DNA of 64,000 bases from Escherichia coli. GTDB lineage: Bacteria; Pseudomonadota; Gammaproteobacteria; Enterobacterales; Enterobacteriaceae. The stretch's first letter is position 1. Every line of letters starts with the position of its first letter. The stretch is taken from NCBI RefSeq assembly GCF_041248615.1, contig NZ_CP158426.1. One strand, written 5' to 3'. The position numbers were made by a program, and so were the translations under genes. Below are positions 3,030-19,012 of this stretch, piece after piece. The notes under the pieces were generated by a model, which did not search any database, had not been told where the DNA came from, and worked only from the letters and a program-made list of their open reading frames with translations.

Positions 3030-3039
3030 AGATAACCTC

Positions 3040-3333
3040 TCAGCTCATCAGCAGTGCGCCGATTTCACTGCCTCCACCAATCAGGATGCCGCCAATGATG
3101 ATGTAGGCGCACTGGGACAGGCTTTCGCCTTTCCAGAGTGTCTTGTAACCTACCCAGATCACGGCCACGGTAATGGTGATGGCCGCCAGGCCATTAAGGC
3201 CGGTGGCGACTTTTTCCATCACGGTATTTGCGCGTTGAAAGCCATCGGCAAAAACCGGAGGTACAGAACAAACGATGAGTGCAAATGCGGAAACATGACT
3301 GAAAGCGGCCTTAAGTTTGCAGCAAAGTGTCAT
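3040..3333 (-). CDS. virB2: VirB2-like pilin
   Basis: 97-aa ORF with signal-like N-terminus and two hydrophobic segments, placed between virB1 and virB3/4. Confidence 0.55.
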   Translation of the reverse strand: MTLCCKLKAAFSHVSAFALIVCSVPPVFADGFQRANTVMEKVATGLNGLAAITITVAVIWVGYKTLWKGESLSQCAYIIIGGILIGGGSEIGALLMS

Positions 3334-4088
3334 TATTCTTTCTCCTCACGGGGTGACAGGGAGAGGCTCCGGCGCAATGACGGCGTAGAGATCTTTTCTA
3401 TGGCAATTTTCTTCTGGCGGAATTTTGAGGGGACGCCACGAACCACGCCCTTCGGCCAGATCACGCAGGGACGTAACTGGTCACCTGCAGGCGTAGGCTT
3501 CAGGAACGGCGGGGGTGTCAATTTATCCTCGTGGGTTCCGGGTACGGCATAGTGGGGAGCAGCAGCGTAACCGATTCGTTGCACATAGCTGGTTCCGGAA
3601 AAAGCCGCTTCCGGCTGTTCTCCGGTACGGAAATTGCCGGAGTAGTAGCAACTCAGTGCTCTTTTCAGCGAGCCGCCGCGTCGGTAACAGTCGTTGAGGA
3701 TGTGTTCGAAAACAGACAAATTGGTACAGGGATCAAGCAGCTCAGAGGCTGTCACACCGTAATGATGGAAATTGGTGCTGGTAATTTGCATCAGCCCCAC
3801 AGAATAACGGCGGCTCTGCGCCATAAGGCGACCTATGATTCGCTCGGCTCTTTCCCGGCTGGTGGGCTGATGAGAAATGATTTTATTGTGACCGAAGGTG
3901 CCTGAGCCCTTTGGGATAATTTCGGCGATCGCATAAGGGTTAAAATTGGACTCCACCCTTACGACGTCGAGTGCTGTGGACGGATGAATGCTGGTGGCAC
4001 ACTGCATGGCCACCGCCAGAAAGGCAGATGTGGAAAGCATAGTAGCCTCGGGAATGCGGGCAGCGTACATAGCCAAAGAACCATGCAT
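3333..4088 (-). CDS. virB1: VirB1-like lytic transglycosylase
   Basis: 251-aa ORF with SLT-type motifs (VESNFNPYA, GLMQI); first gene of the virB cluster; true start may be internal. Confidence 0.7.
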   Translation of the reverse strand: MHGSLAMYAARIPEATMLSTSAFLAVAMQCATSIHPSTALDVVRVESNFNPYAIAEIIPKGSGTFGHNKIISHQPTSRERAERIIGRLMAQSRRYSVGLMQITSTNFHHYGVTASELLDPCTNLSVFEHILNDCYRRGGSLKRALSCYYSGNFRTGEQPEAAFSGTSYVQRIGYAAAPHYAVPGTHEDKLTPPPFLKPTPAGDQLRPCVIWPKGVVRGVPSKFRQKKIAIEKISTPSLRRSLSLSPREEKE

Positions 4089-4677
4089 GCTGAGGGAAAC
4101 TTGAAGGGGTAATGTGTGGTTTCGAGATTGTGAGCACTTTGCGCCGGATTTCCGAAGCCATAATAAAGGGTTTCATGAGATATTCTTTACAGGGCTTTTG
4201 ATTCGGGTAAATGCGGCACTAATGTTTTTGAAGTAGATGTTTTATTTCAGCGTGTCTGTTGAAAATTCAAGACCGACAAAATGATGTCACTTGGTTTTAT
4301 CTGGATAGTCTCTAATCAAAATAATAATTAATGGGTCACATCCCAATTCTGCATTCCGATTTCAACGGGTCAGCGAGAACATTCAGCGGCACACTGAATT
4401 AAGGTTGTGTGATAGCCTGATATAAATTATTAAAGAACGGTGCTCGACCAGGCTGAATAAATGCCTAACTGTCAGGTCGATGAGCAGAAACACTATCAGG
4501 ATGGATTTAATTAATATAAATTGGAATGATAAAGTGAAAATGAAATGATAAGAGTTTTTCGGGGATGAATTTTAGTAGTGTAAGGGGAGGGGGATATAAT
4601 CGATGATTGTGTTTGTACTAATAGTGAAATATAAAGACGTGCGGGGTTTTAATTCCCTGCACGCCTTACTGTTAACA

Positions 4678-4887
4678 TTAGCGTTTACGTCGTTCAAGCA
4701 TTTCCTGGCATTCTCTACACGTTGTTACTCCTGGCAGAGTGTGCCTCCGCTTTTCAGGAATTGGTCTACCGCAGAACTGACAGTGATACAGGGAAGGTGT
4801 TGCTGCTGGTTTGAAACGGCTTTGTTCAATCATTTCCTCCAGACGTTGCTCATTGAATTCCTGGTCGCGATCAACTTCGTCAGGCAT
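4678..4887 (-). CDS. traR: TraR/DksA-family C4 zinc-finger protein
   Basis: Translation MPDEVDRDQEFNEQRLEEMIEQ...CQFCGRPIPEKRRHTLPGVTTCRECQ; CxxC...CxxC motif; start taken at the internal Met of the 88-aa ORF. Confidence 0.7.
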   Translation of the reverse strand: MPDEVDRDQEFNEQRLEEMIEQSRFKPAATPSLYHCQFCGRPIPEKRRHTLPGVTTCRECQEMLERRKR

Positions 4888-4888
4888 A

Positions 4889-5461
4889 TCATGTCCTCCT
4901 GTCTGTCCTTCCCTGCTCGCAAAATGTGATTCGGTTACACACAACAGTGAGTGAGGGGGGATTGGGCTCTGAGGCTAACTCTTCGGTGATCTGCATCATG
5001 ATGTTAATTGCTTCATTAGCATCAGGACTTTTCCCTTTTAACGCCTTCCATCGGCACCATATTGTGGCATCCATGGTTTCATCAGGAAGAGGTGAGCGTC
5101 CATACGGTACAGAGATGCCCTGTAATCTGCGGTTGAAACAGACATCGTTGGAAGTAAGACCAAAATAATGCTTTAGTAAGGCTATAGATCCACCTAACCG
5201 GATCGCCCGATTAATTTGCTGATGATGCTGGGTTTCAGTACGTGCTCTTTCCAGCTGTTTGCGTAAAATGTCATGGTGAATTTTGACTGTAATAAATGAT
5301 GCGGGAGAGTGGCAGATGTTCAATAATACATCAAGTGGTAACTGACTGATTTCGTTTATTTCTTCAAGAGTAAATCCAAGTGTTTCACCATAAGATAAGT
5401 CACCATCCTTCAATGCATAAATTACATCCGTGAGTACGTAATAATTCAGCAAGGGAAACAT
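4889..5461 (-). CDS. Hypothetical protein (element-associated)
   Basis: 190-aa ORF directly between alpA and traR on the same strand; no motif recognised. Confidence 0.4.
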   Translation of the reverse strand: MFPLLNYYVLTDVIYALKDGDLSYGETLGFTLEEINEISQLPLDVLLNICHSPASFITVKIHHDILRKQLERARTETQHHQQINRAIRLGGSIALLKHYFGLTSNDVCFNRRLQGISVPYGRSPLPDETMDATIWCRWKALKGKSPDANEAINIMMQITEELASEPNPPSLTVVCNRITFCEQGRTDRRT

Positions 5462-5478
5462 AAGTTATCTCTCTTATC

Positions 5479-5664
5479 TTAGCGGTTAGCTAATTTACAA
5501 TTAATCCATTCGTCAATCTCCGACTCGAGCCAGGCTACGCTGGCTGGGCCGATTTTTATTGAGAGTGGGAAACGCTTGTCTTTCATATACAGATAGATTT
5601 GTGAGCGTTTAAGACCTGTTTTTTGCTCGACCTGTCTGAGGCGTAATAATTGATGAGATGGCAT
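5479..5664 (-). CDS. alpA: AlpA-family transcriptional regulator / excisionase-like
   Basis: 61-aa ORF; LRLRQVEQKTGLKRSQIYLYMKDKRFP matches the AlpA HTH pattern as I recall it. Confidence 0.75.
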   Translation of the reverse strand: MPSHQLLRLRQVEQKTGLKRSQIYLYMKDKRFPLSIKIGPASVAWLESEIDEWINCKLANR

Positions 5665-5798
5665 TTGTTCCTCCAGGGGCTTATGGCATTGCTATCATAA
5701 AGGAACACAGAATGATGTTTAGATAAAGACAGTGAACCCGTATTACGACATTATTCACCCGTAATACGGATCTCAGAGCTATATACACGAAGGATGTA

Positions 5799-6752
5799 CT
5801 ACTTCACCGTAGTTTTAAACGATAAAGGGGAGCCACGCTCCAGCGCCGTTTTTAGCGTATCACCGCTGAGATGATCGGTGATACCATCAGAGATTGCCCA
5901 TTCCTCAAATATAGACAAGAGTTTGTAGGGTTGTTTCACCAGAGGGCGTATATCATCATTATGATAACAGGCTAGCCAGAACAGCCGGGATAAGGGCGTA
6001 GATATTCTCGTCGGAGATAACTTGGGGTTTTTGTCACTGGTTAGCTTTTCTATCAATCTCTCAATTTCAACACATTTGATAACGAAAAAAGCATCTTGTG
6101 GCAAGTCATGCATTGGGAAGTAGCATGGATCCGCATAGTCCCGCTTTTCATTCCGCAAGGAAGACTCTTTTATTATAGAGGTGGTTTCATTCGATAAGTA
6201 TTTTATCTTGCTCTGAATTTGTTCTTTCCATGATATTTTATTGAAAAGTAAGAAAAGTTCATTTCCACTCGTAACAGTGATGCCAAAATTAATGGTGTCA
6301 GGATTATCAATAGGTAGTGGCATGCTGAGCGAGTCTGCTAGATATCTTTGTATGATAATGTATTCAAATCCAAATAGGTTTGTGTCCAAAATATTCCTGC
6401 GAGATGAAAAGTAATCTCCTTCAGTAGATATGATAAGGTTCCTATTATTTTTGAAACAATGTTTATCAAGAAAGCAGAGTCTCTTTAGCTCTGAATTGTC
6501 CAAGGTAGATATTTTTACTTTTTCTCCATTTTTAGTTATTTTTCGTAATGTCACCGGAGACTGGAAGTAAATGGATAGATTGATTTGCCCATACAGTGCA
6601 CAGCGATATATTGTACTTTCTGTAATTGAAGTATCGAATGTCTCATTAATCACTTGCACAGCTTCGTGTATTGTTAACCAGTTTTTTGCCATAAGCTTGA
6701 GATTGCTATTCCAGGACATAAGTGATTTTCCTTCATTTATTTTCTTTGGCAA
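5799..6752 (-). CDS. Hypothetical protein, possible N-terminal HTH
   Basis: 317-aa ORF, AT-rich; N-terminus LTIHEAVQVINETFD...TIYRCA resembles an HTH; remainder unrecognised. Confidence 0.4.
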   Translation of the reverse strand: MPKKINEGKSLMSWNSNLKLMAKNWLTIHEAVQVINETFDTSITESTIYRCALYGQINLSIYFQSPVTLRKITKNGEKVKISTLDNSELKRLCFLDKHCFKNNRNLIISTEGDYFSSRRNILDTNLFGFEYIIIQRYLADSLSMPLPIDNPDTINFGITVTSGNELFLLFNKISWKEQIQSKIKYLSNETTSIIKESSLRNEKRDYADPCYFPMHDLPQDAFFVIKCVEIERLIEKLTSDKNPKLSPTRISTPLSRLFWLACYHNDDIRPLVKQPYKLLSIFEEWAISDGITDHLSGDTLKTALERGSPLSFKTTVK

Positions 6753-6987
6753 TTATCTGATGCCATAAGTTAATTGATTGCTATCAATGTGAGAAATACC
6801 TCAGCGTTTATAGACATGCGAGGTTCAGAAAAATAAATTATCTTATTGATATTTCTTCTTTATAGCTTGTAAGTGGTAGTCGCCAATGATGCAAGGGAAA
6901 GGGTCTTTATGGGCATATATCCTATCCGTTAATTTCAACCATGTTCTGTTGTCCAGAGTCAGAATACATCTAACTCTGGATACGTTT

Positions 6988-8037
6988 TCACCAGTGATAA
7001 CTTATCCCTGTATCAAGTTTATCTGCACAGTCAATCCCTGCAGGGCTATTTCTGACGTTATTAAATTTATAATCTAAAAATATCTGCATATTTTTGTTGA
7101 AGTAGTAGCTAAAGCCTATTTCTTCATAATCCAGCACTCGGGTTCGTTGGCCAGCGATTGTTTGCGTCAGGTGAGTGTAACCAATGTTGGGCTGAAATCT
7201 GTCGGTCAGCATATACTTAGCCAGGGCTTCATAGCTGAAGGAGTTGGTATTATTGTTGCGAGGTTGGGGGTTGATAGCATTATTACTCTGCGTGAAAACA
7301 GTGGCCAGATAAAGTTTTTTGCTCTGGTACTTGACCCCCTCTGCGAAAGTTCGAATATTTTTTTTGTAACCGGCATTTTGTTGCTGTGAAAATGTGGTCT
7401 CGGAAGATGACGCAGCAAAAATTGCACTGAGCTTTGGCGTAAAGAACCAGGACAGCGAAGTACCAATACCATTGCCGTTCTGTTGTCTTAAGGTACGATT
7501 CTCGTTGTTACTTTTGAACTGGTATTGCATCGCTAATTTCACTGTCTGTTGAAAGACCGAAAATTTTTTTCGCCACGTAATAAGATCAAGGGCTCGGCCA
7601 CGCATGAAGTTGTCAATGTAGTTATAGGACATTTCCCTGAATAAGGGAGAGCGGTCTGTTATTGAGGTAACGTCGTACAGTACCCCCCAGTTCCGACCGA
7701 TATCAAGGCTTCCCCAGTACGGGTTGTCTACACCCAGAAACGCTAGCCGGGTTGCATTTCTGCTGGCATCTGATGCACTAACCGTATATTCCCAATGAGC
7801 GTAGGTTTGCCAGTTGTGGGTAAGTTCATGCTTCCCAATCAACCCAAAATAGAGATAGCTACGATCGCCATCATCTTTTATGTTATTACTGGTAAAACGT
7901 CTCGCAATAATAGTGCCATAAAAATCGAGACTTTTACCGTCCTGGTTCAGAACGTTGACCGCAAAAGAGTAGGGTGAGAAGAGTAGTGTGATTGATATAA
8001 AATAATAGCGTAAGTAATGCAATGTCATGATAAACAT
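6988..8037 (-). CDS. Outer-membrane porin-like beta-barrel protein
   Basis: 349-aa ORF with signal peptide (LLFSPYSFA), alternating amphipathic strands rich in Y/G/N/T, aromatic C-terminus. Confidence 0.55.
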   Translation of the reverse strand: MFIMTLHYLRYYFISITLLFSPYSFAVNVLNQDGKSLDFYGTIIARRFTSNNIKDDGDRSYLYFGLIGKHELTHNWQTYAHWEYTVSASDASRNATRLAFLGVDNPYWGSLDIGRNWGVLYDVTSITDRSPLFREMSYNYIDNFMRGRALDLITWRKKFSVFQQTVKLAMQYQFKSNNENRTLRQQNGNGIGTSLSWFFTPKLSAIFAASSSETTFSQQQNAGYKKNIRTFAEGVKYQSKKLYLATVFTQSNNAINPQPRNNNTNSFSYEALAKYMLTDRFQPNIGYTHLTQTIAGQRTRVLDYEEIGFSYYFNKNMQIFLDYKFNNVRNSPAGIDCADKLDTGISYHW

Positions 8038-8133
8038 CCCTAAAGATGGCTCAGCATCTGAATGGTGGCAGGGTGGACAATTTACCGCGACATATGCTCA
8101 TTGCTTAAATCCAATGGAATGAGATTATTATCG

Positions 8134-8970
8134 TTATGCTGAAGCGTTTTGTTTATGGCTAAAATAACTGATGATGCCATTAGAAATGGCGGATGCAATT
8201 TTGTTGCGGAATGCTGTTGTGCCTAATAATTTCTCCTCCTGTGGGTTGGTGATAAAAGAGGTTTCAATCAGGACAGATGGGATATAGGGTGATTTAAGTA
8301 CGGCAAAAGCTGCCTGTTCTGTATGGTTTGAATGCATATGGTGGACAGGAGAAATATGGTGAACTATATGTGATCCCAGTAAAAGACTTTCCCTGATGGT
8401 TTCAGTCTGTTCAAGATCGAAGATGATTTTGTCGAGATACTTGTCTCTGTGAATGATTCGTTTTCCTGCAATATTATCAGCAGCATTCTCACTTTTAGAT
8501 AGATACCTTGCCATAGCGCTGCTGGCTCCCCGTGTTGAAAGTGCAAAAACGGAAGCGCCATGGGCTGCAGGACTTGCGAAACCATCGGCGTGAATGGACA
8601 TAAATAGATCGGCTTTGTGTGCGTGAGCAATCTGTACGCGATCGTATAGTGGAATAAATGTGTCATCCGATCGCGTCTGGAGTGCATTAATACCGTGGCT
8701 ATTGAGAATGGCTTTTATCTTAGAGGTAATATCCAGTACTACATGTTTTTCCAGCGATCCTTCACAACCCACTGCGCCGGAATCAATACCCCCGTGTCCA
8801 GGATCTAGCATTATCGTAAATTTGCTACGCCCATTTGTTGGGAGGGAGGAATGCTTATGACTTAGCTGAGGTCGCATATGTGCATATGTCAGCGGTATAG
8901 CCAGTGTATTGGCTGCGAGGGCCGCTAAACCAGTAAGAATAAGTTTTCGCCGGGTAATGTTGGTGTTCAA
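8134..8970 (-). CDS. N-acetylmuramoyl-L-alanine amidase (AmiA/AmiC-like)
   Basis: 278-aa ORF; Tat-like signal RRKLILTGLAALAA; amidase_3 motifs (DPGHGG, SIHADG, ETSFITN). Confidence 0.8.
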   Translation of the reverse strand: MNTNITRRKLILTGLAALAANTLAIPLTYAHMRPQLSHKHSSLPTNGRSKFTIMLDPGHGGIDSGAVGCEGSLEKHVVLDITSKIKAILNSHGINALQTRSDDTFIPLYDRVQIAHAHKADLFMSIHADGFASPAAHGASVFALSTRGASSAMARYLSKSENAADNIAGKRIIHRDKYLDKIIFDLEQTETIRESLLLGSHIVHHISPVHHMHSNHTEQAAFAVLKSPYIPSVLIETSFITNPQEEKLLGTTAFRNKIASAISNGIISYFSHKQNASA

Positions 8971-9412
8971 TGTTGACGCCTCATGCTGAATGATTTGTTA
9001 TGTTATAACGTTATGAATTATTTAAGGTCGAGGACTTGAATGTTATTTTTTGTTGCTTCGGGTTACTTAATATTAATCATTGGAAAATCACGAGGCTCCC
9101 AATGTATTGATAAATTGGATTTTTAATACCCATCACTACCTCTCATCGCTTGAATCATGATGACATCAGGCGTCCAGGTATGATCGTAATCTGCAAGAGC
9201 ACTGCTGATTAGCCTTTGTCCCATCTGTTTACTTTAAATCCTGAATTATCAAACAGGACAATGGAGTCCTGCTGGAAACATATTGATATAGATCCTTTCA
9301 AAAGATAATTATTCTCATTATTATTGGTTATGTTATAACGTAACAATTGAGGGTGTGCCGAGATTTAGAATGAGTCTATCCATTATTCGATGACTTATTC
9401 TGGGGAGGAATT

Positions 9413-10795
9413 ATGTCAACTGAACATATCAAAGAAGAAAAACTCAACATTGGTGCTGTGCTGGCTGTATCACTTAGTACAGTGATTGCGATGCTGGACA
9501 GCACTATCGCAAATGTTGCCTTACCTGTTATTGGCAAAGATTTTGCCGTCTCAGAAGCTGCATCCATCATGATAATCAATGCTTACCAGTTTGCTGTGGT
9601 CGCTTCATTGCTGGTATTCGCTGCATTGGGAGGCAAAATAGGTAACAAACGTATTTTTATTCTTGGAGTGATTTTTTTTGCGCTTTCCTCGTTAGGATGT
9701 GCACTTTCTGAAACACTGATGATGCTGACGGCTTTTCGCGTCATTCAGGGCTTTGGGGCTGCGGCCATTCTAAGTGTGAATGCGGTGTTGATTAAAGAGA
9801 TCTATCCTGCCCGGTTGTTAGGTCGTGGATTGGGGATTAATGTAATGGTGGTCTCTGTTTCCGCAGCGGCGGGCCCGTCAATTGCTTCAGCTATTATGTC
9901 AGTTGCGAACTGGAACTGGTTGTTTTCTATTAATGTACCGATCGCTTGTATTTCATTGCTGCTCTGTATTGTATCGTTCAAATCGACGCAACGTACCGAA
10001 AACCGGTTTGATAAAGCGGGTGCGTTGCTGGTTTTCCTGACGTTCGCTTCGTTTTCAACGATGATGCTGGGTCTGGCGAGGAACAACGTGTTAGACGTTA
10101 TCCCAAGCTCGATTATTCTTGTCGTGCTGGCAATCACTTTGTATCTGAATCAAAAAAGAAAGATTACTGATGCTTTGATCCCGGTTGCGATATTTCGCAA
10201 CAGGACATTTTCTCTGTCGTTATTAATGTCTTTGTTATCATATAGTACGCAGTTACTGGCATATGTCTCCTTACCATTTTATTTTCATAATGTATTAAAC
10301 CGCAATGTCGTTGAAATTGGCATGCTGTTAACGGCATGGCCGCTGGCGACAATGTTGACGTCATTGGTCGCGGGTGAACTAATCAAAAAGTTCGAGCCCA
10401 ACCTGGTAGCATTTACCGGACTATTACTACTTTTGATAGGCACTCTTTTAATGACATGGCTGCCCGTACAACCCTCGAATCTGCAGATCCTCTGGCGGAT
10501 CGCTATTTGTGGTTTTGGTTTTGGACTATTCCAGTCCCCTAATAATTTTCTCATTATGACTTCGGTCCCACATGAAAATAGCGGTATTGCCAGCGGATTA
10601 TTAGGCAGTTCACGTCTGATTGGGCAGATTATTGGTTCTGTGCTGGTGGCGTTTTTCTTTAATAACTTTGGGCGTAATGTAACAAATATTAGTCTTTTTG
10701 CCGGAGCATTGTTCTCATTTATGTCTCTGGCGGTGAGTTATCTCCGCTATAAATCTGCTTCTCATGACGTTGGTTTTGTTAAGAAAGTAATATAA
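9413..10795 (+). CDS. MFS transporter (drug:H+ antiporter-like)
   Basis: 460-aa ORF with about 14 hydrophobic segments and an MFS signature-like loop (GKIGNKR). Confidence 0.8.
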   Translation: MSTEHIKEEKLNIGAVLAVSLSTVIAMLDSTIANVALPVIGKDFAVSEAASIMIINAYQFAVVASLLVFAALGGKIGNKRIFILGVIFFALSSLGCALSETLMMLTAFRVIQGFGAAAILSVNAVLIKEIYPARLLGRGLGINVMVVSVSAAAGPSIASAIMSVANWNWLFSINVPIACISLLLCIVSFKSTQRTENRFDKAGALLVFLTFASFSTMMLGLARNNVLDVIPSSIILVVLAITLYLNQKRKITDALIPVAIFRNRTFSLSLLMSLLSYSTQLLAYVSLPFYFHNVLNRNVVEIGMLLTAWPLATMLTSLVAGELIKKFEPNLVAFTGLLLLLIGTLLMTWLPVQPSNLQILWRIAICGFGFGLFQSPNNFLIMTSVPHENSGIASGLLGSSRLIGQIIGSVLVAFFFNNFGRNVTNISLFAGALFSFMSLAVSYLRYKSASHDVGFVKKVI

Positions 10796-10854
10796 GTCTT
10801 TCAATAAAATAATCATGTGATGCTATTAAATTACAATTCATTTAACTCATTGAG

Positions 10855-11943
10855 GTGCTAAGTATGCTTAATGGAAAAATATTATTCTCATTATTCATAT
10901 CATCGATAATATTATTATCAACGGCAAGCTATGCCAATAGTAGTGAGGTGAGTAAGACGATAAATGACCAAAATATGAAAAATACTGAAGAAATACCCAT
11001 AAAATTCAACCGTATTATTATCACCGGCAATTGCCCCTTTGGTGTAATTATGGCAAATGATTTGGCATATAAACATGTTGTGGGCGTAGGACCTTGGGCT
11101 TTTCTGCATTCAAACATGAAACTTCTCAAGGATATGAAGCCAGATATCGACCGTATCACTACTGACTTTATTAATAAAGACTATGTTGTAAATATGGAAT
11201 CCTTACTAAATTTACAACCAGATATTATTTACTATTATGGTAAAAGTCAGAATGATAATCTGCAGCGGGCAGGGATCCCAACTATTAATCTTGATGCTGG
11301 TGGTGACACGAAATTTGAGCCAGTAGTAACGCAAACGTATTGGGAAAACGAATTTAACCAGACGCTTGGTTTACCTCACAGTCACAAATTTTCGGATGCA
11401 TGGAAGAGAAGCCTCAATGAGGCAAAACCATATGCCGAGAAGATCAAATCACAACATATTCGGGCATTATATCTTGAGCAGAGTGATGGGAAAGAGCTCA
11501 AGGTGAGTGGGCCGAAAACATATGGTGATACCTATCTTAAGATGGCGGGGATGGAAAATGTAGCAAGTGATCTGGTGGTAAAAGGGGATGCTGGCAGGTA
11601 CATTAATGTTTCAATGGAGCAAATAATTCAGTGGGATCCCGATGTTGTATTTGTGGTCTTTGGTAGCGCGAAGGATATTCTTAATAATAAAAATCCCGGG
11701 CAAGATTGGCATAATGTTAAAGCATTCAAAGATGGGAAAATATTTTCTACACCCGTAGGACTACATAATTGGGGAGGATTGTCTGCTGAGACTTCGCTAT
11801 TACCATTGTTTATGATTAATAAATTTAACCCTGACTATATAACAGATGCAGAATTGAAAGTTGCAACGCGGTTACACTATAAAAAAGTGTTTGATTATGA
11901 AATTCCGGACGCGCTATTAACCGATGAGTTAAGACAGCGGTAA
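10855..11943 (+). CDS. ABC importer substrate-binding protein (siderophore/heme/B12-type)
   Basis: 362-aa ORF with signal peptide, directly upstream of FecCD-type permease and ATPase genes. Confidence 0.7.
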   Translation: MLSMLNGKILFSLFISSIILLSTASYANSSEVSKTINDQNMKNTEEIPIKFNRIIITGNCPFGVIMANDLAYKHVVGVGPWAFLHSNMKLLKDMKPDIDRITTDFINKDYVVNMESLLNLQPDIIYYYGKSQNDNLQRAGIPTINLDAGGDTKFEPVVTQTYWENEFNQTLGLPHSHKFSDAWKRSLNEAKPYAEKIKSQHIRALYLEQSDGKELKVSGPKTYGDTYLKMAGMENVASDLVVKGDAGRYINVSMEQIIQWDPDVVFVVFGSAKDILNNKNPGQDWHNVKAFKDGKIFSTPVGLHNWGGLSAETSLLPLFMINKFNPDYITDAELKVATRLHYKKVFDYEIPDALLTDELRQR

Positions 11944-11986
11944 TAAAGTAATTCGGCGAATAGGTTTTTATTTTTAAAGGTTAGTT

Positions 11987-13000
11987 ATGCAGGAAAGACA
12001 AAAATACCGCATGCTGATGTGGATTTCAATCGTATTGTTACTGATTGTGGCTATGATTTCTTTGTTCATAGGTCGCTATACATTATCTATCCCCGAAATA
12101 ATGACGGAGGTATTACATGATAATGGTCACCGTTGTTTGAGCGCAGGATTCTCGGTTATATGCAATCTACGGTTGCCAAGGATTATTGCCGTCATGATGG
12201 TAGGGGCAGGGCTATCAGTAGCAGGCGTGACGTATCAAGCGGTGTTGCGAAATGCACTGGCTAGCCCGGATGTGCTCGGTACATCTTCCGCCGCAGCGTT
12301 CGGCGCAGCACTTGGGATACTGCTAGGTTTTCCACTACAACTCAGCGCTTTTTCCTCTTTCTTCTTTGGCATTGTCAGCCTTTTATGCGTGATGGGACTT
12401 TGCCATTTCAAGAAAAACAATGGGGAGCTCACGACTATCCTGTCGGGCATCATAGTGGCTTCGGTGTTTATGTCTTTTGTATCAATCATTAAATATGTTG
12501 CCGATCCACAGGACGAACTCCCGGCTATCGTCTTCTGGCTTATGGGGAGTTTCGCTTCTCTGGTCAAAGAGCAGGTTTATGGACTCATCCCGCTATACAT
12601 CATTTGTTATCTGGCTATTTACAAACTTCGATGGAAAATCAATGTGTTGTCTTTGGGAAATGATGAGGCCAAAATTGCTGGAATGAACCCACAATTGTTG
12701 AATACAGTTTTGCTAATCACAGCCTCAATTTTGGTGGCAGCATCAGTCACCATCGCTGGCGTGGTGGGCTGGGTTGGTCTGGTTATCCCGCATCTGGTTA
12801 GAACGCTGGTCGGGTACAACCATAGCAAGCTGATCCCGGCTTCGGCTGTATGTGGTGCGTTGTTTTTATTGGTCATCGACAACATTGCCAGGACCCTGAC
12901 TTACGCAGAGATCCCCATTGGAATACTTACTGCTCTGGTTGGTGCGCCTTTATTTGCTGTACTGTTCATCATGAGTAACCGATATGATCGAAGTGAATAA
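11987..13000 (+). CDS. ABC importer permease, FecCD/BtuC family
   Basis: 337-aa polytopic ORF with GWVGLVIPHLVR-type motif. Confidence 0.8.
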   Translation: MQERQKYRMLMWISIVLLLIVAMISLFIGRYTLSIPEIMTEVLHDNGHRCLSAGFSVICNLRLPRIIAVMMVGAGLSVAGVTYQAVLRNALASPDVLGTSSAAAFGAALGILLGFPLQLSAFSSFFFGIVSLLCVMGLCHFKKNNGELTTILSGIIVASVFMSFVSIIKYVADPQDELPAIVFWLMGSFASLVKEQVYGLIPLYIICYLAIYKLRWKINVLSLGNDEAKIAGMNPQLLNTVLLITASILVAASVTIAGVVGWVGLVIPHLVRTLVGYNHSKLIPASAVCGALFLLVIDNIARTLTYAEIPIGILTALVGAPLFAVLFIMSNRYDRSE

Positions 13001-13739
13001 TCTGACGTTCGCATTCAAAAAGAGTAAAACTGCCTTTAACAATATCAGCTTCTCCATTGATGAAGGTGAGGTACTGTGCGTATTAGGACCGAATGGTGTT
13101 GGCAAAACAACATTGCTTAAAACGGTTACCGGTCTGTATCAACCGGTTAGTGGCTCATGTCATATTGGCCGAGTGGGAAACCGGAAAGCTCGTATGGCGT
13201 ATGTCCCGCAGGCCAAACGTGTTCACTTTTCTTACAATGTACTCGATTTCATCTCCTTTGGGTGCCCATTACGGGGCGGAATGCTGGCATCTCCTGGGGC
13301 GAGGGACATCGAAAAAGCGGCGCGAATATTGTCGGGACTTGGCGCTTCATATCTTGCAACCAAAGACGTTAACCAGATAAGTGGAGGTGAACTACAGATG
13401 TGCTACATCGCGAAGGCGCTGGTCTCAGAGCCGGACATCCTTGTGCTTGATGAACCTGAATCAAATCTTGATTTTAATAATCAGTCTCTCATTATCAATT
13501 GGTTGCACACGTTGTCGCGAGAGAAAAAAGTTACTATTATCCTGAATACGCACTTCATCAATCATGCAAATAACATTGCAGATAAATGTTTGCTAATGGG
13601 AAAAGATAGTTACTGTTTTGGAACAACACAGAGTGTCTTACAAGAGTCTCTCCTCGCCGATTATTTCCATGTTCCCGTTAAACGCTGTCATTTTGAACAC
13701 AAAGGAATACAGAAAGAATCATTTATTGTTGCAGTGTGA
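12984..13739 (+). CDS. ABC importer ATP-binding protein
   Basis: Walker A GPNGVGKTT, signature LSGGELQM, Walker B LVLDEP; overlaps permease stop (coupled). Confidence 0.85.
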   Translation: MIEVNNLTFAFKKSKTAFNNISFSIDEGEVLCVLGPNGVGKTTLLKTVTGLYQPVSGSCHIGRVGNRKARMAYVPQAKRVHFSYNVLDFISFGCPLRGGMLASPGARDIEKAARILSGLGASYLATKDVNQISGGELQMCYIAKALVSEPDILVLDEPESNLDFNNQSLIINWLHTLSREKKVTIILNTHFINHANNIADKCLLMGKDSYCFGTTQSVLQESLLADYFHVPVKRCHFEHKGIQKESFIVAV

Positions 13740-13934
13740 TAGGTAGCCAATATCGCAGAGAAAATAAGAATTGAGGAATTGTTTATTGCGAAACCGTGCG
13801 AGTAGATGGTAATTCTGGTAGGAATATCATTTACGATTGATCAATTTTCCCACGGACTATATGCGATAAAATAACTTTGTCGATGCATGAAATAGCAGCT
13901 TCATTTTGTTAAAAGTAATAATAAAGGTGTAATT

Positions 13935-14552
13935 ATGATTAAAAAATTCGTTGAAGAATATCTTAATCAGATCTACATAAAAAAATACTCAATTATTACT
14001 ATTAATTCTCTTGATGAAGCTTCAATTATATCTAATATGCCTCATTGTTGGGAGCGTGATTTTCTGAAAAGAGAGCTGCATCTTCGAAGTGATATTGTAT
14101 TGAAAGCTAGAAGTAAAATAACCCCCTTCAAATGGTCTTCTGTAAATGGTAATAATGAAGATCTTAAGGCTTTATCCAATAGGTATAATATTAGCAATGG
14201 GGTGACTTTTGTTATAAAAATAAAACATGATGTCGTGATCTTCACGATGTACTACAATGAGGATGATGAGGATTTCATAAGATACTACTCTAGAAAGAAA
14301 CATAAAATATTGTATGATGTTATGAGTCTTTTTGAATCCCATTATGAACAAACACCCAAACATGTATTCACTGTACGAGAAAAGGAAGTTATGAATTTGC
14401 TGAAGTTTGGAAAAACTTATATTGAAATAGCATTTATTCTTGGTGTAAGTGAAAGGACCGTCAGATTTCATATCAATAATATTCTTGATAAATTGAATGT
14501 GACATCAGTTCGTTATGCGATCTTTAAAGCAGCTTCCGAAGGTTTGATCTGA
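13935..14552 (+). CDS. LuxR-family transcriptional regulator
   Basis: 205-aa ORF; C-terminal LuxR HTH (REKEVMNLLKFGKTYIEIAFILGVSERTVRFHINNILDKLN); AT-rich N-terminal domain. Confidence 0.7.
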   Translation: MIKKFVEEYLNQIYIKKYSIITINSLDEASIISNMPHCWERDFLKRELHLRSDIVLKARSKITPFKWSSVNGNNEDLKALSNRYNISNGVTFVIKIKHDVVIFTMYYNEDDEDFIRYYSRKKHKILYDVMSLFESHYEQTPKHVFTVREKEVMNLLKFGKTYIEIAFILGVSERTVRFHINNILDKLNVTSVRYAIFKAASEGLI

Positions 14553-14883
14553 CAAGGTTTTCCTTGTCAGATCATCTATCAATGACGATAGAATTCTGAA
14601 AGGCGTAATCTCAAGCCATCGGTATCAAATCCATGCGCCCGAATGTGTTCTTCTGGGGTCCAAAATTGTCTGAGCTCCTTTGGTTTTGCACCAATGGACA
14701 AGATTCTGTGAGGTATATCGGACAATGCCTCACCTATAGCATGAATTGTCGTTCCTTCTAGGTATGGTTAACCTAGCCGGTTTATTACTACATGTCGTGG
14801 CAACTCCAGCGGAGTACATAATAGTCCATTCAGCATTGTTACTTTTTGTGAACTAGACTGGAAAAGAACTGGGTCAAATCACA

Positions 14884-16188
14884 TTAAATGAAGATACGTA
14901 GGCCGACCGCCGCCAGATGATCTGATACATTATATGACGCATCAGTGTTACCGCTTGCTTTCTCATAACCGTATTCAATATAGGTCACTGCGTTTTTCCC
15001 CAGCCAGTAATCGGTACCCAGCGTGGTGGACTGGAAGTGTTGACCGTCCATCGCATCACCGCCTTCGGTCCAGTCAAAGTTGGCATAGACGCTCCACTCA
15101 GGGGTAATTTTGAACTGTGAGGCATATTCCAGACCCAGAATCGTTTCTTGGTCGTTAGTCTGTTTGCTGGCGCCGCTGGTTGCTGCCTGAACGTCATCAA
15201 CTTTGTTGATATAGTAAGTCGCTTGCGCGCCGTTATACCAGGTGAAACTATCAAAGCTGGTTGTGTACTTAGCGTTCATCCCCATCGAATAGGTATTACC
15301 GTCATATGAAGGGCCGGTCACCGTTGTAACTGGAACAGTACCACCGTGCGGACCTATGGGCACATCCGTGGTTATGGTACCCTGATTGACAGAATAGTTG
15401 TTATAAGCTGCCGTACCGGAAAGTGAGAAACCATTATCGAAGCGATATTGTGCTGCTAACGCAGCGCCGCCGTGAACAGTCGCGGAACCATCGTGGTACG
15501 CATCATGCATATCCGGTCCGTTGCCGTAACCGCTGCCAAAACCAATTTTATCGACATCGTCATTCCCTTGGCCCATTACACCCACCGTGAAGGCCTTGGT
15601 GTTGTAATAATAAATAACAGCCGAGTTAATAATATCGGTCGACATACCAGTGGTATCATGTTTGGCTTTGCCACCGTATGCATAGGTGGTATCAATTCCC
15701 AGCCCCCAGTCGGTTGGGGAATATTGCTTACCGAAAGTCACCACCCCATATTCATCATTACCTATCCCCGCATACGCCTGACGGGTATAAACATCGTTAC
15801 CCTGATTATCAGTTGCGGAATCCAGACCGTGTATGCCAGTTTCATAATAACCTGCTGCGTAATAGCCTTTGTCATTAATATTGTGTCGTAGTGCGACACC
15901 CAGACGTGAGTCGTTGTTTTGTATATTATGTTCTACACTGTGCGCTGAATCGTTCTTTGCCATGAGACGTAAGGATCCCATAACTGAAATGGCTGTATCA
16001 TCATTTTGATAAATCATCTCCCCCTTGGTCTGTGTAGCAGTATATGCTGGAGCCGTATGTTCCCCGCTACTCACCTGTGCACAGGCAGGTGCGACTATTG
16101 CTGCAGTAATAAGCGGAGCAACAATAAATGGTTTAAGTCTTATATATTTTACGTGCATAGAAACCCCATGATCATTGTTTAAGTTCAT
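14884..16188 (-). CDS. Outer-membrane beta-barrel protein (porin-like)
   Basis: 434-aa ORF, likely start at internal MHVKYIRLKPF (16158); signal peptide, G/Y/T-rich strands, C-terminal ...GLRIFI. Confidence 0.5.
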   Translation of the reverse strand: MNLNNDHGVSMHVKYIRLKPFIVAPLITAAIVAPACAQVSSGEHTAPAYTATQTKGEMIYQNDDTAISVMGSLRLMAKNDSAHSVEHNIQNNDSRLGVALRHNINDKGYYAAGYYETGIHGLDSATDNQGNDVYTRQAYAGIGNDEYGVVTFGKQYSPTDWGLGIDTTYAYGGKAKHDTTGMSTDIINSAVIYYYNTKAFTVGVMGQGNDDVDKIGFGSGYGNGPDMHDAYHDGSATVHGGAALAAQYRFDNGFSLSGTAAYNNYSVNQGTITTDVPIGPHGGTVPVTTVTGPSYDGNTYSMGMNAKYTTSFDSFTWYNGAQATYYINKVDDVQAATSGASKQTNDQETILGLEYASQFKITPEWSVYANFDWTEGGDAMDGQHFQSTTLGTDYWLGKNAVTYIEYGYEKASGNTDASYNVSDHLAAVGLRIFI

Positions 16189-16370
16189 TTTTAGAGTGTT
16201 TTTTAAATATGGAGAGTCTATTAAAAGCTTTTGAATATAAAATAAAACTGTCAGTTCTGACAGGAGTGTTTTTTATTTTCAATTAAATTATTAAGCATTT
16301 TTTCGGAGATGTGGGTTTTTTACACGGTATTAGCGAAACGGTTTGCCATGTAGTTTGGACAAAGTAAAAA

Positions 16371-16400
16371 GCCGCATCAGTCTGCACTGATGCGGCTTTG
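16371..16400. terminator. Hairpin terminator downstream of island integrase
   Basis: Perfect 11-bp stem GCCGCATCAGT/ACTGATGCGGC with 4-nt loop, flanked by A-run and T-run. Confidence 0.55.
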
Positions 16401-16422
16401 ATTTGTCAGGGTGACTAAATCA

Positions 16423-17694
16423 CTAGCCAGCTTGAAGCGTCGTTTTTCCTCTCCCCAGTATGTAGGGCGGTACATAGGATTTGCGGCAAGTATCCAGATA
16501 ATCCGACCACCACTGCATCATTGCCTTTCTTGCTTCCAGATGCTCTGCTCTGTGAATATATGCCTGGCGTACGGAGTTACGTTCCTGGTGGCTCATTTGC
16601 CGTTCAACAGCATCCTGTGACCATATACTGGATTCCATAAGGGCACTGCATGCCATTGTCCTGAAACCGTGACCACAGATTTCCATTTTCGTATCCCAGC
16701 CCATCAGGCGTAGCGCCTTGTTCACCGTATTTTCACACATGGGTTTATACGGATTATGGTCCCCGGGGAACACGAGTGCATTATCTCCTGAGATATCCTT
16801 AATCTTTTTCAAGATCGCGATCGACTGTTGTGAGAGGGGTACGATATGAGGCCTGCGCATTTTGGCACCACGACCAGAGTAACGCACGCCTTCAATAGCT
16901 TCGCGCGTGGCGGGTATTGTCCAGACCTGGTTTCCGAAATCAATTTCATGCCAGCGGGCAAAACGCAATTCACTCGAGCGAATGAACAGATGCAGTGTTA
17001 GCAGGATGGCAAGGCGAGTGAGTTCACGGCACTGCTGAAAACTCTCAATGCTCTCAAGCAGTTCTGGAAGACGCTCCAGTGGTAGAGCGGGGTAGTGTCG
17101 TTTTACTGGTGGAGCCGTCACTCCGTCAAGGTTTGCTGCCGGATTAAAATCGATTAATCCATGATGCACGGCGTAGCGCATGATATTCCGGAGGTGCTGG
17201 CGTGTACGGGATGCAACTTCCAGGAGACCCTTTTCCTCAATTCCTTTTAATAAAGTGATGAAATGGCGGGGTTTCAGTTCTGAAACTGACATGGTGCCAA
17301 TGACTGGGAAGATATGATTATTCATGCTGGCGAGCAAACGGTCGGCGGTGTTCTCTGACCATTTTTTATTGCTCTTGTGCCATGCAAGTGCAACGTTTCT
17401 AAACACTTTCTTTGGCATGCGAGAACTGCGTTCGGCTGCTCGCTGCTCTGCTGGATTGATGTTCAGTACCAGCATTTTGCGAATACCTTCACGTTGACTA
17501 CGGGCGTCTGAGAGGGAGATGACTGGGTAGGCACCGAGTGCAATACGTGATTCTTTACCCTTAATACGGTACTTGAGATACCAGTGACGTGAACCGCCAG
17601 GTTTGACCAAGAGATACAGACCGTGGGAATCGGAAACTTTAAAGGGTTTATCAGATGGTTTGAGACTGCGGATTTTGGTGTCGGTAAGAGACAT
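16423..17694 (-). CDS. Tyrosine integrase, P4/CP4-57 type
   Basis: 423-aa ORF; N-terminus MSLTDTKIRSLKPSDKPFKVSDSHGLYLLVKPGGSRHWYLKYR is typical of P4-like integrases; adjacent to tRNA 3' end. Confidence 0.9.
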   Translation of the reverse strand: MSLTDTKIRSLKPSDKPFKVSDSHGLYLLVKPGGSRHWYLKYRIKGKESRIALGAYPVISLSDARSQREGIRKMLVLNINPAEQRAAERSSRMPKKVFRNVALAWHKSNKKWSENTADRLLASMNNHIFPVIGTMSVSELKPRHFITLLKGIEEKGLLEVASRTRQHLRNIMRYAVHHGLIDFNPAANLDGVTAPPVKRHYPALPLERLPELLESIESFQQCRELTRLAILLTLHLFIRSSELRFARWHEIDFGNQVWTIPATREAIEGVRYSGRGAKMRRPHIVPLSQQSIAILKKIKDISGDNALVFPGDHNPYKPMCENTVNKALRLMGWDTKMEICGHGFRTMACSALMESSIWSQDAVERQMSHQERNSVRQAYIHRAEHLEARKAMMQWWSDYLDTCRKSYVPPYILGRGKTTLQAG

Positions 17695-17855
17695 ATGGGG
17701 TCACTCCATAATAGAACGAACCGGACCCCAGATTTGACCACCAATTTTTCCCGATGCGGAGGATAAAATCAAAATGCATCAGGAGAAGTTTTCACGCTAA
17801 GCTGTTGTATTAAAACCATAGAGGCATTAATGAATGCTGCACGAAAACAAGAATT

Positions 17856-17931
17856 TGGCTCCTCTGACTGGACTCGAACCAGTGACATACGGATTAACAG
17901 TCCGCCGTTCTACCGACTGAACTACAGAGGA
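17856..17931 (-). tRNA. tRNA-Asn (anticodon GTT)
   Basis: Reverse complement reads TCCTCTGTAGTTCAGTCGGTAGAACGGCGGACTGTTAATCCG...GGTTCGAGTCCAGTCAGAGGAGCCA; 76 nt cloverleaf. Confidence 0.9.
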
Positions 17932-18031
17932 ATCGTGTGAACGGGGCGCATATTACTTAGCGGTACCTTGTCTGTCAACACTAAATTTCATAAGCCATTT
18001 CAATTGGTTAATTAATCTGCAAAGTTGTTAA

Positions 18032-18868
18032 TTAATGAACATTCGTCGCCGAAAACGAGTCTGTATCATTAGCGTGATGCAGTCTCTGCAAAGGATCTTG
18101 TTGATAAAATTGGCAGAAACGTTGCCACAATGAAGGGAAACGAGGAGCAAAAAGTTCTGGGGCGCTAAAGAAATATTCAGAAAGTACGGCAAAACACTCA
18201 GCAGGATCACTGGCAGCATAAGCATCGATGCTCGCCGCATTCTCGCCAACTAATTCGATTTCTTCCTGAATGTTGTTCATTGCAGCATGAAGATCGTGTT
18301 CCCAGCTAGCAACCTCACGCAACGGAATAAAGGGAACTCCGCTGGCGCGATCGCCGTTACGGGTGTCCAGCTTATGAGCGACTTCATGAATAATCAGGTT
18401 AAAACCAGAAGCATCAAAAGAATCTTGTATATCCAACCAGTTCAAAACGATAGGCCCTTGCTGCCAGCTCTGACCTGACTGAACAATACGTTGGTTATGC
18501 ACCAGACCGATATCGTCTTCCCATTCGTCATCGACCACAAATGGCGCAGGATAAATTAAGACTTCATGAAAACCATCCAGCCATTCCAGTCCTAACTCCA
18601 GAACGGGCAGGCAAAATAGAAGTGCTATCCGGCAGCTTCTTAATGAATCCAGTTCAAAGCCCTGTAAAGGAACAAGCCGCTTTTGCTGTAAAAAACGTTC
18701 GGCAAGAGTGACTAATTTGCTTTGTTCCTGTTCCGTCAGACACGTTAAAAGGGGGATCGATAGTGCTTCCTGCCAGGGAAGGGCAGTTTGATGTGCTGAT
18801 TCTTGTACTTTCCAGGGCCACTTAATCATCGTTTTGCTCGCAAACTCGTCACTTGAACAAAATTGCAC
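18032..18868 (-). CDS. mtfA: MtfA (Mlc titration factor A, zinc peptidase)
   Basis: 278-aa ORF; HEVAHKLD zinc-binding motif; sequence matches my recollection of E. coli YeeI/MtfA. Confidence 0.85.
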
Positions 18869-18922: not shown

Positions 18923-19012
18923 GGAGAGATGCCGGAGCGGCTGAACGGACCGGTCTCGAAAACCGGAGTGGGGGCAACTCCACCGGGGGTTCAAATCCCC
19001 CTCTCTCCGCCA
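18923..19012 (+). tRNA. serU: tRNA-Ser (anticodon CGA), serU-like; 3' half is attL
   Basis: GGAGAGATGCCGGAGCGGCTGAACGGACCGGTCTCGAAAACC...GGGGGTTCAAATCCCCCTCTCTCCGCCA; long variable arm; 90 nt. Confidence 0.9.
18951..19012 (+). repeat. attL (3' portion of tRNA-Ser)
   Basis: 62 bp matching 60161-60222 with two substitutions. Confidence 0.8.

Follow-up and report, generated by a model that had tools for sequence, protein, structure and literature searches.

A stretch of DNA that reads like protein and has no start codon raises the question of whether it is the remains of a gene, a small gene in its own right or a product of chance, and of what event left it in place. Such a frame lies on the minus strand of the window, a 64-kb stretch of Escherichia coli DNA, between an intact LuxR-family gene (13935–14552, plus strand) and a porin gene with its stop codon at 14884 (minus strand), which is where the initial annotation had located it, between a LuxR gene and an outer-membrane protein gene. 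The strand and the reading frame of that annotation held up, and the peptide given there is the exact translation of the frame; however, the length and coordinates (59 codons, 14590–14766) had to be corrected to 62 codons at 14582–14767. The translation is PYLEGTTIHAIGEALSDIPHRILSIGAKPKELRQFWTPEEHIRAHGFDTDGLRLRLSEFYRH, followed by a TGA stop codon (14579–14581). As had been noted, a stop codon (TAA, 14768–14770) lies immediately upstream and there is no in-frame ATG, and we found no in-frame GTG either; the sole possible start codon is a TTG at 14725, which would yield a 48-aa ORF. The ORF listing for the same 6 kb contains numerous spurious ORFs of 40–110 aa, and the length of the frame alone is thus not beyond chance.

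We searched 5,426 complete E. coli genomes by megablast using window positions 14400–15000 as the query, and found five matching records. Four of these, representing three strains (2018-06-4CC with two assemblies, YF-1 and NRZ14408), were 100% identical over the whole query. In the fifth, E. coli A38, only window positions 14400–14769 were matched (93%), and the matching gene is annotated there as 'transketolase family protein'. BLASTP aligned the 62 codons with residues 248–309 of the 309-aa A38 protein (54/62 identical, E = 7e-38), and the remnant is syntenic with positions 9183–9368 of the A38 locus (hereafter L001); the TGA stop codon aligns with that of the A38 gene (L001 9180–9182), and is thus the native stop of the gene, kept in the window. 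We regard the remnant as real because of this homology, collinear with the C-terminus of the A38 protein, and not because of its length, and in this respect the earlier description of the frame as genuine protein sequence proved correct. That the frame is open by chance, as ORFs of similar length in the region commonly are, or results from faulty assembly, has almost no probability left: the first is refuted by the match to the syntenic gene, and the second by the identical junction in four independently assembled complete-genome records. In all four, the remnant is left unannotated by RefSeq/PGAP. A search of positions 14400–15000 against Rfam yielded no credible RNA; the best hit, to a eukaryotic snoRNA model, scored 15.7 bits against a gathering score of 75 bits and is attributable to chance.

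The parent gene encodes the C-subunit of a split transketolase (TktC). In the A38 protein, the Transket_pyr domain (PF02779) was detected with 90.9 bits, and residues 16–295 align with the C-terminal component of the solved split-chain transketolase of Carboxydothermus hydrogenoformans (6yaj/6yak; E = 1.8e-24 for 6yaj). As in that type, the gene for the Transket_pyr protein immediately follows a separate gene for a Transketolase_N subunit (TktN); unlike 6yaj/6yak, it belongs to an operon of secondary-metabolite type and not to pentose-phosphate metabolism. The remnant represents the final part of the C-terminal domain, in which the conserved GV, GTP and GL positions lie. Proteins of approximately 309 aa belonging to the same family occur in Citrobacter, Klebsiella, Salmonella, Dickeya, Serratia and Xenorhabdus, and in actinomycetes at 55–64% identity; the full-length parent used as a query against a database of 5.8 billion proteins returned more than 7,700 relatives. 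The 62-aa fragment returned a single match from the same database, a yield that reflects the limited sensitivity of a word index for short queries. This match, a 35-aa entry named 'transketolase, partial', is partial only because its contig ends within the remnant, and it says nothing on the presence or absence of the operon there. The fragment alone produced no domain match in Pfam, and PF02780 was not reached at E ≤ 0.01 even by the C-terminal domain of the parent, which is too divergent. The homology of the remnant to the C-terminal domain of the family is nevertheless clear from its identity with A38 and from its alignment with 46 homologues. Compared with 6yaj/6yak, the window retains only the last 62 codons: the Pyr domain (PF02779) is encoded by codons 1–247, which fall within the deleted segment described below, and the locus contains neither a complete ORF of approximately 300 aa with a start codon nor an adjacent N-subunit gene.

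We then compared the window with L001 by blastn and obtained two collinear blocks, in which window positions 8000–14769 correspond to 2601–9370 and positions 14769–17879 to 15194–18299. Measured against A38, 5,823 bp (L001 9371–15193) are absent from the window, comprising the first 247 codons of the C-subunit gene, six upstream genes and 143 bp upstream of the AfsA start codon. The in-register partial homology to an intact syntenic gene and the collinearity of the flanks on both sides are the hallmarks of a pseudogene produced by deletion. The blocks meet at 14769, and base-level comparison placed the junction at 14769/14770 with 1 bp of microhomology. At this joint an in-frame TAA (14768–14770, minus strand) is formed from a T on the porin side, the shared A and an A on the tktC side, where the intact gene reads GAA. 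The missing start codon and the adjacent upstream stop are therefore explained together, since the joint falls before codon 248 and creates the TAA. No repeats, insertion sequences or substantial microhomology beyond this 1 bp were found at the breakpoints; the single shared base and the lack of flanking direct repeats or an insertion sequence indicate illegitimate recombination. A38 is approximately 6% diverged from the window, so that the ancestral breakpoint sequences are approximations. A 6-bp inverted repeat, CTAGGT-N7-ACCTAG, arose with the joint and spans it (14758–14776), and is followed by CCGGTTTATT; the site was scored as weakly terminator-like on the plus strand, and the repeat is probably fortuitous.

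In A38, the LuxR-family gene is faced convergently by a seven-gene minus-strand operon that ends in TktC. In the order of transcription, its genes encode an AfsA-related hotdog protein, an acyl carrier protein (ACP), a β-ketoacyl-ACP synthase (KAS), a HAD hydrolase, an MFS transporter, TktN and TktC (309 aa). Pfam confirmed AfsA, Transketolase_N and Transket_pyr among the products; the AfsA hotdog domain (PF03756) scored 86 bits in two stretches, with the ACP and KAS genes adjacent. An AfsA-type cluster, defined by PF03756 together with acyl-carrier machinery, is accordingly present in A38, Citrobacter and Dickeya and is lacking in the window, where the segment is deleted. The operon and the convergent LuxR gene are kept together in a conjugative element of the same type from Citrobacter, in the Dickeya chromosome and in closer relatives of the locus (L009–L011); the plasmid collection contained no copy of the operon. 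The intact parent gene, which the initial annotation had proposed to look for, was thus found at the syntenic position in A38 and in other genera.

These comparisons also bear on the direction of the change. It could be supposed that the short arrangement came first and that the operon was inserted later in A38 and the other long forms, and the short allele is indeed the commoner one among complete E. coli genomes (four records versus one). However, the short allele already holds the last 62 codons of the final operon gene, in register and beside the native stop, which an insertion could not generate, and the complete operon, together with its convergent LuxR gene, is shared between genera (Citrobacter, Dickeya and elements of the same type). 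For both reasons the long form is taken to be ancestral, and the insertion reading, effectively refuted by the in-register partial gene, retains a vanishingly small probability. We infer a deletion, and a single one.

The operon has been damaged independently and repeatedly in different hosts. In Citrobacter portucalensis, an insertion of an IS3-family transposase cuts the C-subunit gene to 199 aa (L009 10001–11904) and the MFS gene is shortened to 264 aa (L009 8127–8921), and in L011, a Logan contig, the MFS reading frame is broken into parts of 264 and 122 aa (5259–6418). Together with the deletion in the window, this damage supports the earlier suggestion of cargo turnover in the island. 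L009, L010 and L011 differ further from A38 and the window, in that an 86-aa ORF and a GNAT acetyltransferase gene (approximately 1.8 kb; L010 3042–4910) lie between the porin gene and afsA. The junction of this indel lies approximately 5–10 bp from the endpoint of the 5.8-kb deletion (window 14770–14843; L001 15194–15268). Of the 114 bp left downstream of the porin stop in the window (14770–14883, minus strand), positions 14844–14883 are common to all related elements, and positions 14770–14843 show high identity only with A38; in L010 they correspond, in diverged form, to the beginning of the GNAT segment. The shared absence of the GNAT segment from A38 and the window, together with the proximity of the two breakpoints, argues that the window derives from an A38-like arrangement and that the same spot has served as a breakpoint twice.

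We further analyzed whether the remnant still evolves as protein-coding sequence. Relative to A38, it shows eight synonymous and eight non-synonymous codon differences, with a dN/dS of 0.24 compared with 0.09–0.17 in the neighbouring intact genes, a gap that is not significant with 17 differences; much of this divergence probably predates the deletion. As the dN/dS comparison involves too few sites, we used a test based on invariant sites. Three private substitutions of the remnant, V27A, G36W and L47F, fall at sites that are invariant in 46/46 intact homologues and are conserved also in 6yaj. Among the 46 intact proteins, 42 carry no private change at an invariant site and four carry one, compared with three in the remnant. 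These three substitutions indicate that the remnant is drifting without constraint at the protein level, and constraint is thus relaxed, as expected of a pseudogene.

Could the fragment nevertheless encode a functional small protein, namely the 48-aa ORF from the TTG at 14725? A GGTGAGG motif lies just upstream of this in-frame TTG; however, these bases simply encode part of the parent protein (the IGEAL/IAEVL codons), and the GAGG within them is only 2 nt from the TTG, poorly spaced for a Shine-Dalgarno sequence. Moreover, such a product would comprise just the last part of a transketolase C-terminal domain, with neither the remainder of that domain nor the Pyr domain, it carries radical changes at invariant residues, including G36W, and no protein started at the TTG is on record, the sole database entry being the 35-aa piece cut by the contig end. 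We therefore consider a functional small protein very improbable. Judged from its sequence, the fragment appears to be neither translated nor functional.

A non-coding role has also to be weighed, in which the remnant DNA would be retained because the convergent LuxR and porin transcripts use it as a 3΄ untranslated region or end in it. Between the stops of the convergent LuxR and tktC genes, and overlapping the LuxR stop, lies a hairpin (14545–14574) with a 13-bp stem, TGATCTGACAAGG-TTTT-CCTTGTCAGATCA, which has a predicted RNA folding energy of approximately –22 kcal/mol on either strand and whose stem is preserved in A38, Citrobacter (L005) and Dickeya (L007/L008). The hairpin has no T-tract and was not called by the terminator search; as a candidate bidirectional element, it may end both convergent transcripts. 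Its arms hold the words CTGACA and TGTCAG, which resemble half-sites of the palindrome upstream of the porin gene, described below, in everted order, a likeness that may be a coincidence. The conservation of this hairpin in all relatives fits a transcript-end role, as does the lack of any detected minus-strand terminator from the porin stop to the remnant, through which porin transcripts may therefore run. The hairpin lies outside the remnant, however, and a need for 186 nt of former coding sequence is unsupported; in addition, substitutions accumulate freely in the remnant, and chance explains the position of the breakpoint equally well. A retained transcript-end function of the remnant is therefore unlikely, although less so than a small protein.

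Taken together, the frame is almost certainly a non-functional 3΄ pseudogene scar of the split-transketolase C-subunit gene, left by one deletion in the seven-gene operon. The proposed course of events is as follows. The ancestral element, a conjugative element integrating at tRNA-Asn, would have carried the seven-gene operon as cargo, transcribed toward the convergent LuxR-family gene. One deletion by illegitimate recombination would then have taken the region with the operon promoter and palindrome, the first six genes completely and the seventh up to codon 247, and the joint would by chance have put a TAA directly before codon 248. The fragment would subsequently have drifted, gaining changes at residues invariant in the family, and the deleted element would have stayed mobile, reaching two different tRNA-Asn sites. 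The proposal of a decayed gene fragment is thereby borne out by the intact syntenic parent in A38, the clean 5,823-bp deletion and the substitutions at invariant sites; a lack of any protein homologue or a random-like composition would have spoken against it, and neither was found, given the homologue at E = 7e-38. The remnant shares with ordinary pseudogene fragments and deletion scars in island cargo its partial in-register homology, synteny, lost start and relaxed constraint, and differs from them in nothing essential; it is an unannotated example of a well-known kind of feature, produced by ordinary gene decay.

The locus is cargo of a conjugative element with a VirB-type type IV secretion system, MobC, a coupling protein, AlpA, DUF2857 and a tyrosine integrase (16423–17694, minus strand; ORF listing and annotation). 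The attachment site is a tRNA-Asn (GTT) gene (17856–17931, minus strand), identified by ARAGORN and annotated in the matching genome NRZ14408. There and in the window, the element occupies a tRNA-Asn adjoining mtfA and a tRNA-Ser(CGA) gene (serU; 18923–19012), and in 2018-06-4CC and YF-1 it occupies a tRNA-Asn adjoining nac/cbl; the window and 2018-06-4CC are collinear only to position 17955 (loci compared: L002, L012 and L013). We considered the tRNA-Ser at 18923–19012 as a possible false positive inside nac and rejected this: it is real, and the chromosomal context of the window differs from that of genome H1. The identical junction at two attachment sites indicates that at least one transfer or integration event came after the deletion and that the deleted variant stayed mobile. 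The junction 5΄-CTTCTAGGTATGGTTAACCTAGCCGGTTTAT-3΄ (window 14755–14785) is thus a precise lineage marker for this variant of the element. Other cargo is retained in all variants (window 8000–13739; L003 30009–36760) and comprises a second porin, an AmiA-type amidase, an MFS transporter and an ABC uptake system of the FecB/FecCD/ATPase type.

What the lost operon made can be approached by analogy. In A-factor biosynthesis, AfsA condenses a β-ketoacyl-ACP with dihydroxyacetone phosphate, and a phosphatase step comes next. By this chemistry, a butenolide- or butyrolactone-like molecule is a plausible product of the AfsA-ACP-KAS-HAD set, and the MFS protein would export it. Homologues of AfsA/Spt9 with adjacent ACP genes have been noted in Citrobacter koseri and Dickeya sp. 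(Creamer et al. 2021, PMC8209734), a report in which no product is assigned to the clusters and in which LuxR and transketolase genes go unmentioned. The lost operon likewise starts with a gene for an AfsA-domain protein followed by an ACP gene, and, unlike in those clusters, in the window the entire operon is gone.

The convergent partner of the lost operon has remained intact. The LuxR-family regulator (205 aa, 13935–14552, plus strand) has the same length as in all relatives, and is thus full length although it is left without a neighbouring AfsA-type operon. Pfam detected the two domains expected of a LuxR-type quorum-sensing receptor, the GerE helix-turn-helix domain (HTH) with 56.2 bits against a cut-off of 23.5 bits and the autoinducer-binding domain (Autoind_bind) at a borderline 23.6 bits against a cut-off of 23 bits; precomputed orthologue matches agree. 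Compared with A38, the dN/dS of the gene is 0.15; the changes private to it are conservative throughout and spare the HTH. Receptors that lack a cognate synthase are known as LuxR 'solos', examples being SdiA of E. coli and PluR/PauR of Photorhabdus. The window gene is likewise intact and without a neighbouring putative synthase operon; unlike in these solos, its solo state is recent and due to deletion, and the presumed ligand would come from the AfsA pathway, in contrast to AHLs, pyrones and dialkylresorcinols.

The porin gene flanking the deletion (14884–16158, minus strand) encodes 424 aa from an MHVKY start, with the ORF open to 16188; the 424-aa form (MHVKYIRL...) has a signal-peptide-like sequence at its start. 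The annotated porins are 359 aa (A38 and YF-1) and 424 aa (2018-06-4CC and NRZ14408), and the longest ORF is 434 aa. A frameshift as the cause of this difference was rejected, since the frame is open throughout in the window (14884–16188) and in L001 (15308–16582), and the choice of start codon accounts for it. A segment of approximately 85 bp upstream of the porin gene (16218–16302) has a counterpart before afsA in every intact locus, with approximately 80% identity between the two. It contains the palindrome CTGTCAGAACTGACAG (16248–16263, minus strand), which is identical to the copy upstream of AfsA in the intact loci and overlaps the –35 region of a promoter-like site. The form CCTGTCAGAA(C/T)TGACAG was invariant in 7/7 aligned promoters, and the palindrome occurs once in the 64-kb window, where 0.07 occurrences are expected by chance. 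Every intact locus, whether in E. coli, Citrobacter or Dickeya, has it ahead of afsA (segment or palindrome at L001 15081–15161; L010 4948–5028 and 1622–1637; L005 4985–5000; L007 4984–4999), and the copy on the AfsA side was removed by the deletion.

On these grounds, CTGTCAGAAYTGACAG is a candidate lux-box-like operator, through which the LuxR-family protein may control both the operon and the porin gene. The deletion would then have taken the synthase side of a putative module and left the receptor and one target, as the arrangement suggests. More broadly, it is conceivable, although we hold it rather doubtful, that the lost operon, the LuxR-family gene and the palindrome form an uncharacterised cell-cell signalling module on mobile elements of Enterobacterales. 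A search of the literature with the terms AfsA, LuxR, transketolase and Enterobacter found no description of a module of an AfsA-type synthase and a LuxR-type receptor, nor of AfsA with a 'LuxR solo'.

The scar is of little importance in itself: it records a deletion of cargo in the form of an unannotated pseudogene fragment, and adds a missing pseudogene to the annotation. It reveals, however, a past AfsA-type operon paired with a LuxR-family regulator, which has been noted only in passing in the literature (PMC8209734). The pairs of intact and deleted loci (A38 versus NRZ14408, 2018-06-4CC and YF-1) would be natural material for studying the product of the operon and control by the LuxR-family protein. 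The receptors of actinomycete butyrolactone systems are of the TetR type. If the tentative module is real, a small molecule of the AfsA pathway would be sensed by a LuxR-type rather than a TetR-type receptor, and the element in the window would be a natural signal-negative, receptor-positive variant that responds to the signal of others via the porin promoter. Such a receptor-only variant would then have spread to at least two chromosomal sites.
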